Assembly (NCBI RefSeq): GCF_044324785.1
Contig: NZ_CP172127.1
DNA: 64,000 bases
Origin: Escherichia coli
GTDB lineage: Bacteria; Pseudomonadota; Gammaproteobacteria; Enterobacterales; Enterobacteriaceae
Strand: one strand, 5' to 3'
The notes under the pieces are model-generated. The model saw only the letters and a program-made list of their open reading frames with translations. It was not told the DNA's origin and did not search any database. Positions 7,894-36,028 of this stretch are shown piece after piece. Both the position numbers and the translations under genes were made by a program. Numbering within the stretch: the first letter of the stretch is position 1; every line of letters starts with the position of its first letter.

Positions 7894-8043
7894 TGTTGAC
7901 TCCGAATGCTGGTTATCTATCCAGTGTAACAGGCGGGGAGCGATTAAAAAAGAGGCGGGTTGATGACAAAGGTTACACCGTCTGACGTGCTACGCCTGTC
8001 AGGCCTATTCGACTCCTGCAATGTATTGAATTTGCATAGTTTT

Positions 8044-31379: not shown

Positions 31380-31404
31380 GCCGTTAACGTTTTTAACTTT
31401 TTAA

Positions 31405-31788
<384 letters not shown>

Positions 31789-31796
31789 GCCAGTTG

Positions 31797-31828
31797 AAAG
31801 AGGGAGCTAGTCTCCCTCTTTTCGTTTC
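31797..31828 (+). terminator. rplT intrinsic terminator
   Basis: aaagagggag-ctagt-ctccctcttt followed by tcgtttc. Confidence 0.7.
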
Positions 31829-31910
31829 AACGCCATCAAAACATTGACTTTTATCGCCGTAGCCTTTTCAATAAAGGTCTTTTGAAGAGTACCAAAAGGT
31901 AACGCAAGCA

Positions 31911-31955
31911 ATGAATGCTGCTATTTTCCGCTTCTTTTTTTACTTTAGCACCTGA
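31911..31955 (+). CDS. pheM: pheST operon leader peptide (14 aa, 5 Phe)
   Basis: ATG AAT GCT GCT ATT TTC CGC TTC TTT TTT TAC TTT AGC ACC TGA translates to [14 protein letters not shown]; too short for the ORF track, read directly. Confidence 0.9.
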
Positions 31956-32002
31956 CTCCAGGAGGCTAGCGCGTGAGAAGAGAAACGGAAAACAGCGCCT
32001 GA

Positions 32003-32028
32003 AAGCCTCCCAGTGGAGGCTTTTTTTG
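32003..32028 (+). terminator. pheST attenuator terminator
   Basis: gcctcc-cagt-ggaggc followed by ttttttt, between pheM and pheS. Confidence 0.8.
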
Positions 32029-32196
32029 TATGCGCGTTTTGAAAAATAAAAAGCCTGTCTCATCAGGCGTAATTGTCGCAGCCAGTCTGGACACGGCCAG
32101 CGCGGAGAAACCGGAGCGTATTTAAGTACGTGAGGATTTCGAGCACTGCCCGGGACCAAAATGGCAAGTAAAATAGCCTGATGGGATAGGCTCTAA

Positions 32197-33222
<1,026 letters not shown>

Positions 33223-33233
33223 GGCAGGAATAG

Positions 33234-35624
<2,391 letters not shown>

Positions 35625-35628
35625 ACCT

Positions 35629-35928
35629 ATGGCGCTTACAAAAGCTGAAATGTCAGAATATCTGTTTGATAAGCTTGGGCTTAGCAAGCGGGATGCCAAA
35701 GAACTGGTTGAACTGTTTTTCGAAGAGATCCGTCGCGCTCTGGAAAACGGCGAACAGGTGAAACTCTCTGGTTTTGGTAACTTCGATCTGCGTGATAAGA
35801 ATCAACGCCCGGGACGTAACCCGAAAACGGGCGAGGATATTCCCATTACAGCACGGCGCGTGGTGACCTTCAGACCCGGGCAGAAGTTAAAAAGCCGGGT
35901 CGAAAACGCTTCGCCCAAAGACGAGTAA
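35629..35928 (+). CDS. ihfA: integration host factor alpha subunit
   Basis: ORF 35629..35928, 99 aa, [52 protein letters not shown]... Confidence 0.97.
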
Positions 35929-35940
35929 TCTGATCTAACT

Positions 35941-35972
35941 AAAAAGGCCGCTCTGCGGCCTTTTTTCTTTTC
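35941..35972 (+). terminator. ihfA intrinsic terminator
   Basis: aaaaaggccg-ctctg-cggccttttttcttttc. Confidence 0.8.
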
Positions 35973-36028
35973 ACTGTCGAAGAGTCACCGTAAAATCAAC
36001 GCCATGACACTTCAGCAGAACGGATACC

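Follow-up and report, generated by a model that had tools for sequence, protein, structure and literature searches.

The pheM leader peptide and transcription attenuator of the pheST-ihfA operon in Escherichia coli

Results

Organisation of the rplT-pheS interval

The DNA analysed here, called the window in the following, is a stretch of 64,000 nucleotides from E. coli in which the genes around the leader are arranged in the order thrS-infC-rpmI-rplT-pheM-pheS-pheT (Table 1). The rplT gene ends at position 31788, and the PheS protein encoded further downstream is 100% identical to E. coli PheS of locus L006. The open reading frame delimited mechanically for pheS begins at an in-frame ATG at 32227, which lies 12 nt 5′ of the annotated start (MSHLAEL..., as in K-12 and in RefSeq).

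Alignment of the rplT-pheS interval with that of K-12 MG1655 revealed differences at 5 of 453 positions, only one of them within the leader. This position, 31956, is the first base after the TGA codon and belongs to a hairpin loop; it is a C here and an A in K-12, while the remaining four substitutions are located in the spacer. The C is also present in strains 18KM2445 and FCI48 and in locus L006. At the same place the K-12 annotation lists pheM (b1715) as ‘pheST-ihfA operon leader peptide’. The peptide encoded here is the same as that of b1715, it occupies the same position between rplT and pheS, and the stop codon of pheM is separated from the ATG of pheS by 284 nt in both strains.

A search of the 64-kb window against Rfam identified the Phe_leader family (RF01859) at 31905..32029 on the plus strand with a score of 74.4 bits, compared to a gathering score of 55, and an E value of 9.2e-11. 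As positions 1–125 of the 125 model positions were aligned, the match exceeds the curated gathering threshold over the full length of the model. Between 31700 and 32300, no T-box or other cis-regulatory family except Phe_leader was matched in Rfam, even at E ≤ 1. The initial annotation, a reading of the raw sequence, had named the element pheM, and this name stands: the leader agrees with that of K-12 b1715 apart from one loop base, it carries the RefSeq annotation, and it scores above the cut-off of RF01859.

Table 1. Features of the window, with positions counted from its first nucleotide.
Feature	Position	Strand	Basis and remarks
Hairpin distal to rplT	31796..31822	+	GAAAGAGGGAG-CUAGU-CUCCCUCUUUC, T-rich tail; -15.2 kcal/mol
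Native pheST promoter	31844..31872	+	-35 TTGACT at 31844..31849, 17-nt spacer, -10 TTCAAT at 31867..31872
Shine-Dalgarno-like AAGGU	31896..31900	+	Read from sequence; 10 nt 5′ of pheM ATG
pheM leader peptide	31911..31955	+	Translation; same peptide as K-12 b1715; RefSeq pheM
Protector (1:2)	31920..31996	+	Coding region paired with 31973..31996; -36.0 kcal/mol; minimum-free-energy fold
Antiterminator (2:3)	31961..32010	+	GGAGGCUAG and GCGU (31961..31974) with GCGC, CU and AGCCUCC (31995..32010); -17.0 kcal/mol
Intrinsic terminator (3:4)	32001..32027	+	Stem 32001-32010/32015-32024, loop CAGU; -14.9 kcal/mol
Imperfect-palindrome repeat, 147 bp	32047..32193	.	Between terminator and pheS; outside the attenuator
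pheS	32239..33222	+	First structural gene under the attenuator; annotation of near-identical E. coli DNA
pheT	33237..35624	+	3′ of pheS
ihfA	35629..35928	+	3′ of pheT
ES036/CssrF	8001..8043	-	Rfam, 42.9 bits, above gathering score
STnc540	35870..36028	+	Rfam, 67.4 bits, above gathering score; overlaps 3′ end of ihfA ORF
RprA sRNA	60705..60812	-	Rfam, 118.5 bits, above gathering score

Leader peptide and upstream signals

The pheM reading frame consists of 14 sense codons followed by TGA at 31953..31955, and five of the 14 codons specify phenylalanine (TTC at 31926 and 31932, TTT at 31935, 31938 and 31944). Translation of this segment bore out the ORF of 14 codons with five Phe codons that had been described from the raw sequence, including its exact 5′ coordinate. 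The accompanying remark that the ORF is too short for the list of open reading frames was also correct, as it goes unlisted even at a minimum length of 20 amino acids. With a ribosome-binding-site-like sequence, an ATG and an enrichment in Phe codons, pheM has the make-up of a leader peptide and is predicted to be translated. We propose that the AAGGU motif serves as the putative ribosome-binding site. In most loci whose upstream sequence was inspected, the sequence AAGGTAAC is kept just 5′ of the mini-ORF.

The density of Phe codons was also considered as a statistic. Short ORFs with five identical residues within seven codons occurred 7 times in the window and 5.7 ± 2.8 times in shuffled sequences, which is not unusual; since pheM was indistinguishable from the background by this measure, runs of one amino acid were dropped as evidence. 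In combination, the mini-ORF, the Rfam match, the fold and the conservation of the leader are far beyond chance.

A hairpin with a T-rich tail follows rplT and probably marks the end of the rpmI-rplT unit as a putative terminator; it forms part of the context and lies outside the attenuator. The corresponding GAGGGAGC..CTCCCTC hairpin was found again 5′ of the leader in other genera. Between this hairpin and pheM lies the native pheST promoter, which, according to PMC4082710, was identified by Fayat et al. 1983 as TTCAATA, 368 nt 5′ of the pheS ATG. In the window, TTCAATA occupies 31867..31873 and starts 372 nt 5′ of the pheS ATG. In 55 of 79 loci, the arrangement TTGACW-N17-TTCAAT has been retained, 31–58 nt (mostly 34–41 nt) 5′ of the pheM ATG. 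A generic sigma-70 scan of 31400..32400 found no promoter; it missed the native one because its rule requires an A at the second position of the -10 element. In E. coli GPEC60-33-648 (locus L086, 491..949), an IS200C transposase gene is situated between rplT and the Phe leader, near the native promoter.

Terminator, antiterminator and protector

The free leader RNA folds with -58.5 kcal/mol, corresponding to a z-score of -5.5 relative to dinucleotide shuffles, none of which (0/200) was as stable. Its fold consists of two parts, the protector and the terminator at 32001..32024. The protector forms without a ribosome on the leader, and its apex buries a GGAGGCU box (31961..31967). Across 75 distinct sequences, 93.5% of the protector cells are paired.

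The terminator scan described the 3′ structure as a stem of 10 pairs, five of them G-C, with a 4-nt loop and a U tract of seven residues at 32021..32027. In the alignment to Rfam Phe_leader, this structure corresponds to the 3′ helix. The leader ORF and pheS, the first structural gene, are separated by this intrinsic terminator. The GC hairpin with a run of seven T residues, as put forward in the initial annotation, is thus present. Of the extent given there for the whole element, 31911 to 32028, the start is exact and the end lies one base beyond the T run. The position upstream of pheS is right in that pheS is the next gene; the two do not directly adjoin, as 211 nt separate the T run from the pheS ATG, 147 of which belong to an inserted repeat.

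The antiterminator overlaps both other helices: bases 32004..32010 are also part of the terminator, and 11 bases are also part of the protector. Protector and terminator have no base in common. The absence of mutually exclusive hairpins had been named at the outset as the observation that would speak against an attenuator, and with these overlaps such hairpins were found.

The dependence of folding on the position of a ribosome was computed by modelling the ribosome as a fixed mask that keeps -15 to +13 nt around the A-site codon unpaired, and by ending the transcript at 32014, ahead of the 3′ arm of the terminator. With the ribosome at Phe codon 6, 8, 9, 10 or 12, the segment 32004..32010, which makes up seven of the ten bases of the terminator 5′ arm, was predicted to pair with 31967..31961 with probabilities of 0.80–1.00. 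Every pairing between 32004..32010 and 31961..31967 remained below 0.2 when the RNA was free of ribosomes or when the ribosome occupied the stop codon. Antiterminator formation would thus depend on stalling, in silico and under a fixed mask. The GGAGGCU box begins 8 nt 3′ of the T of the TGA codon and 5 nt past the codon itself, and because of this spacing a ribosome at the stop codon covers it. The predicted switch arises because a terminating ribosome covers the box, while a ribosome stalled at a Phe codon melts the protector and leaves the box free.

Equilibrium folding of the leader with the complete terminator was tried as a test of the switch and replaced by the folding of truncated transcripts, since it is the wrong calculation for a kinetic switch. 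At equilibrium, the terminator wins if the ribosome occupies Phe codon 6, 8, 9 or 12 (P 0.87–0.97), whereas it loses if Phe codon 10 or Tyr codon 11 is occupied (P 0.13 and 0.10, respectively). As the terminator wins at most stalling positions, read-through would require the antiterminator to form before the terminator and would thus be a matter of kinetics.

Conservation in E. coli and Enterobacterales

The 161-nt leader was detected in 5,425 of 5,426 complete E. coli genomes, with an identity of at least 99% in 5,242 of them. Among the matches listed, the leader bears the RefSeq labels ‘Phe leader region’ and ‘pheM’. One of the 5,426 genomes yielded no match to the leader, and two matches to the leader region were located on plasmid records. 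In strain FCI48, PheM ends with ...FSS (TCC) instead of ...FST (ACC) (locus L004, 601..603).

For a wider comparison, one genome per species was scanned for PheS, which provided 80 loci from Enterobacterales. The genera covered include Escherichia, Salmonella, Citrobacter, Enterobacter, Erwinia, Pantoea and Yersinia, as well as Dickeya, Pectobacterium, Hafnia, Edwardsiella, Rahnella and others. An ORF of 13–15 codons with the core FRFFFYF precedes pheS in 78 of the 80 loci; Yersinia aldovae has FRFSFYF and hence four Phe residues. In the two loci without the mini-ORF, fewer than 230 nt of sequence are available 5′ of pheS. All 78 mini-ORFs end with TGA, and a GGRGGC box, one base shorter or changed at one base in eight leaders, starts 7–9 nt 3′ of the T of this codon. 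An in-frame ATG situated farther 5′ would lengthen the mini-ORF in loci L056, L058, L066, L069, L070 and L083, which belong to an Erwinia, a Dickeya, Edwardsiella and several Yersinia.

A terminator with a stability of -12.6 to -16.8 kcal/mol was present in all 78 distinct leaders. Applied to these leaders, the ribosome model predicted a mean probability of contact with the box core of 0.04 for the free RNA, 0.00 with the ribosome at the stop codon and 0.91–0.96 with the ribosome at Phe codons. The zero contact at the stop codon is partly due to the mask covering the box, and this coverage is the very point of the conserved spacing. Under the model, 74 of the 78 leaders behaved as expected in all three ribosome states; in the other four, antiterminator contact was predicted with P ≥ 0.1 even without a ribosome (0.19–0.95). 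A different metric, which scored the 5′ arm as paired with anything upstream, was abandoned in favour of the box-core contact, as weak non-specific pairing had inflated its baseline to 0.3–0.6.

The conservation of base pairs was evaluated in anchored registers and in a MAFFT alignment. In the anchored registers, the GCCUCC/GGAGGC core of the terminator pairs in 76 of 76 sequences. Most pairs are invariant, some show one-sided U-A/U-G changes, and compensatory changes occur at two pairs only, one of which is a C·A mismatch in 39 of the 76 sequences. In the MAFFT alignment, six pairs were changed on both sides, a number reached in 10 of 500 shuffles, and 89% of the cells were paired in register, compared to 45–63% with the partner slid. 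For the antiterminator, the corresponding values were 83% in register and 43–58% slid. The MAFFT rows of the terminator, with 55 entries scored as ‘other’ at one pair, were discarded as artefacts of a one-column shift of the alignment in the 5′ arm of the terminator. Since the leader is almost devoid of variation, synonymous sites included, covariation is weak. We regard the evidence from pairing and covariation as supportive and not decisive.

A dispersed repeat between terminator and pheS

The spacer between the terminator and pheS contains a repeat that carries terminal inverted repeats of 17 nt (32052-68 and 32176-92) and folds at -65.9 kcal/mol. It gave no match in Rfam and has no RefSeq feature. 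About 88% of complete E. coli genomes, among them K-12, contain the repeat, and 645 of 5,426 (about 12%) are devoid of it. In strain FCI48, which belongs to the latter, the end of the leader is 64 nt from the pheS ATG, compared to 209 nt. The repeat is dispersed at low copy number, with a median of five copies per genome, one of which is located between qseG and qseE. An ‘RSA’ repeat of 150/151 bp with six copies is listed for K-12 (PMC5172473), and the repeat described here may be this old RSA repeat, judged by the similar size and copy number.

Among Enterobacterales (loci L006–L085), the ATG codons of pheM and pheS are 156 to 484 nt apart, and within Escherichia they are separated by 183 or 328 nt. 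This wide range, together with the near-invariance of the leader, implies that the spacer after the terminator differs widely in length between loci, perhaps as a result of insertions such as the E. coli repeat.

Discussion

Identity of the element

We conclude with high confidence, close to certainty, that the feature at 31911..32028 represents the pheM leader and the transcription attenuator of the pheST-ihfA operon. This attenuator is already known; it is a textbook case and an ordinary regulatory element without novelty of its own. The parts of the leader, its identity with the K-12 leader, the mutually exclusive nature of the helices, the change of the computed folds with ribosome position and the conservation in Enterobacterales were all observed here, and none of our findings contradicts the explanation as an attenuator. 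The initial annotation had further called the element a Phe-sensing attenuator. The computed folds, which vary with the position of the ribosome, agree with this designation, and so does the attenuation control described in the literature (PMC4082710, PMC5371410). Specifically, pheM is described as a Phe-rich leader peptide that acts by transcription attenuation with alternative stem-loops (PMC5371410), and PMC4082710, with reference to Fayat 1983, Trudel 1984, Springer 1985 and Mechulam 1987, places the pheST transcripts from the native promoter under attenuation control. A read-through response of the K-12 leader to the level of charged tRNA-Phe in vivo was reported by Trudel 1984, Springer 1985 and Mechulam 1987, as relayed in PMC4082710 and PMC5371410.

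Proposed mechanism

In the scheme that we propose, transcription would start at TTGACT-N17-TTCAAT (31844..31872) and enter the leader encoding the 14-residue PheM. If charged tRNA-Phe is plentiful, the ribosome would reach the TGA at 31953 and cover the GGAGGCU box; if the leader is not translated, the box would be buried in the protector (31920..31996). In either case, AGCCUCC at 32004..32010 would remain free to pair with 32015..32021, so that the terminator at 32001..32024 would form together with its U7 tract, and RNA polymerase would halt 211 nt 5′ of the pheS ATG. If charged tRNA-Phe is scarce, the ribosome would stall at one of the Phe codons (31926..31946), melting the protector and exposing GGAGGCU. 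The exposed box could then pair with AGCCUCC as soon as the latter is transcribed, and the resulting antiterminator (31961..32010) would block the terminator and allow polymerase to continue into pheS, pheT and ihfA. For the transcription start, the response to tRNA-Phe charging in vivo, a pause at the protector and the kinetic order of folding, this scheme draws on the literature or on inference.

Related systems

The closest known system is the pheM/pheST-ihfA attenuator of K-12 itself, with which the leader described here shares the peptide, the promoter, the helices, the terminator and the spacing to pheS. Both differ by one base in the leader and by four substitutions in the spacer, and a functional difference is not expected. 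The pheL leader of pheA follows the same logic of a Phe-rich ORF, protector, antiterminator and terminator and is represented by the same RF01859 model; however, pheL controls the biosynthetic gene pheA, whereas pheM controls the genes of an aminoacyl-tRNA synthetase. The RF01859 consensus starts with AUG AAA AAU AUA CUG UUC UUU UUC GCU UUC UUU UUU ACC and thus differs from PheM of this locus, and the alignment of the leader to the model contains several non-canonical pairs and short gaps.

The trpL leader of the trp operon is the paradigm of leader-peptide attenuation, in which helix 1:2 acts as protector or pause. Both attenuators have the same design of four segments (1:2, 2:3 and 3:4) in which the position of the ribosome selects the fold, but trpL uses Trp codons and pheM uses Phe codons, and their sequences are unrelated. 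Set against trpL, the protector of pheM is a single long helix with about 31 pairs, and cleavage by RNase III has been reported for the attenuator structure (PMC5371410). This cleavage was observed in vitro and by RNA-seq inside the pheM attenuator/termination structure (PMC5371410). The mapped sites probably fall in the protector helix.

Alternative explanations

One could regard the hairpin with its T7 run as a constitutive terminator, for example a back-up for rpmI-rplT, and the Phe-rich mini-ORF next to it as a coincidence. The statistics of amino acid runs given above, with ORFs of this kind no commoner than in shuffled sequence, are compatible with this idea, as are the equilibrium folds, in which the terminator appears in most states. 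However, rplT has a hairpin of its own, and a conserved promoter is inserted between that hairpin and the leader. Moreover, 78 loci representing many genera have retained the mini-ORF, its Phe core, the TGA codon and the position of the GGRGGC box, 7–9 nt from where the stop codon starts, an antiterminator dependent on ribosome position exists, and attenuation control has been reported (PMC5371410, PMC4082710). We therefore consider a constitutive terminator so improbable as to be practically negligible and retain the attenuator as the explanation of the leader.

A second kind of explanation would place the control of read-through in a factor acting in trans on the leader RNA, such as uncharged tRNA in the manner of a T-box, ribosomal protein L20 or a TRAP-like protein. 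The leader adjoins the 3′ side of rplT, whose product L20 is known to bind RNA and to regulate its own synthesis, but the target of L20 is the translation initiation region of rpmI and not the pheM leader. A protein might as well find its binding site in the long protector helix, and RNase III does cleave the attenuator structure. The Rfam search, on the other hand, revealed Phe_leader as the only match around the leader, and a protein site made of RNA only would have no need of a Shine-Dalgarno-like site, an ATG, a conserved frame, a run of Phe codons and a fixed stop position; we thus judge trans-acting control to be extremely unlikely. It is also conceivable that the PheM peptide is functional itself, either as a hydrophobic peptide acting in trans or by arrest of the nascent chain, in addition to or instead of codon sensing. 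Arg7, Tyr11 and Ser13 are near-invariant across genera, and most of the peptides start with MNAAI. Synonymous positions are equally conserved, however, and the codons constitute the 5′ strand of the protector helix; the near-invariance of these residues is thus explained by the constraint that the protector helix imposes on the coding strand at the RNA level. As these data hold no pointer to a function of the peptide and none is needed, we regard such a role as very improbable, and codon sensing by the attenuator remains our explanation for the conserved leader. Its near-invariance down to synonymous sites is what one expects if the protector helix constrains the coding strand.

Biological implications

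The repeat in the spacer adds a hairpin of -66 kcal/mol to the read-through mRNA. One laboratory proposed TCTAAGT, about 45 bp 5′ of pheS, as an ‘alternate promoter’ independent of the attenuator (PMC4082710). In the window, TCTAAGT at 32192..32198 overlaps the right end of the repeat, and the allele without the repeat reads ATTAAGT at this place. If the proposal of an alternate promoter is correct, strains with and without the repeat could differ in how tightly pheST is coupled to the charging of tRNA-Phe, a notion that we consider doubtful.

With regard to the leader itself, the confirmation shows only that a leader ORF of less than 60 amino acids and its terminator can be recognised from raw sequence. 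For the cell, the pheM attenuator ties the synthesis of phenylalanyl-tRNA synthetase, and that of IHF-alpha encoded downstream, to the supply of charged tRNA-Phe.
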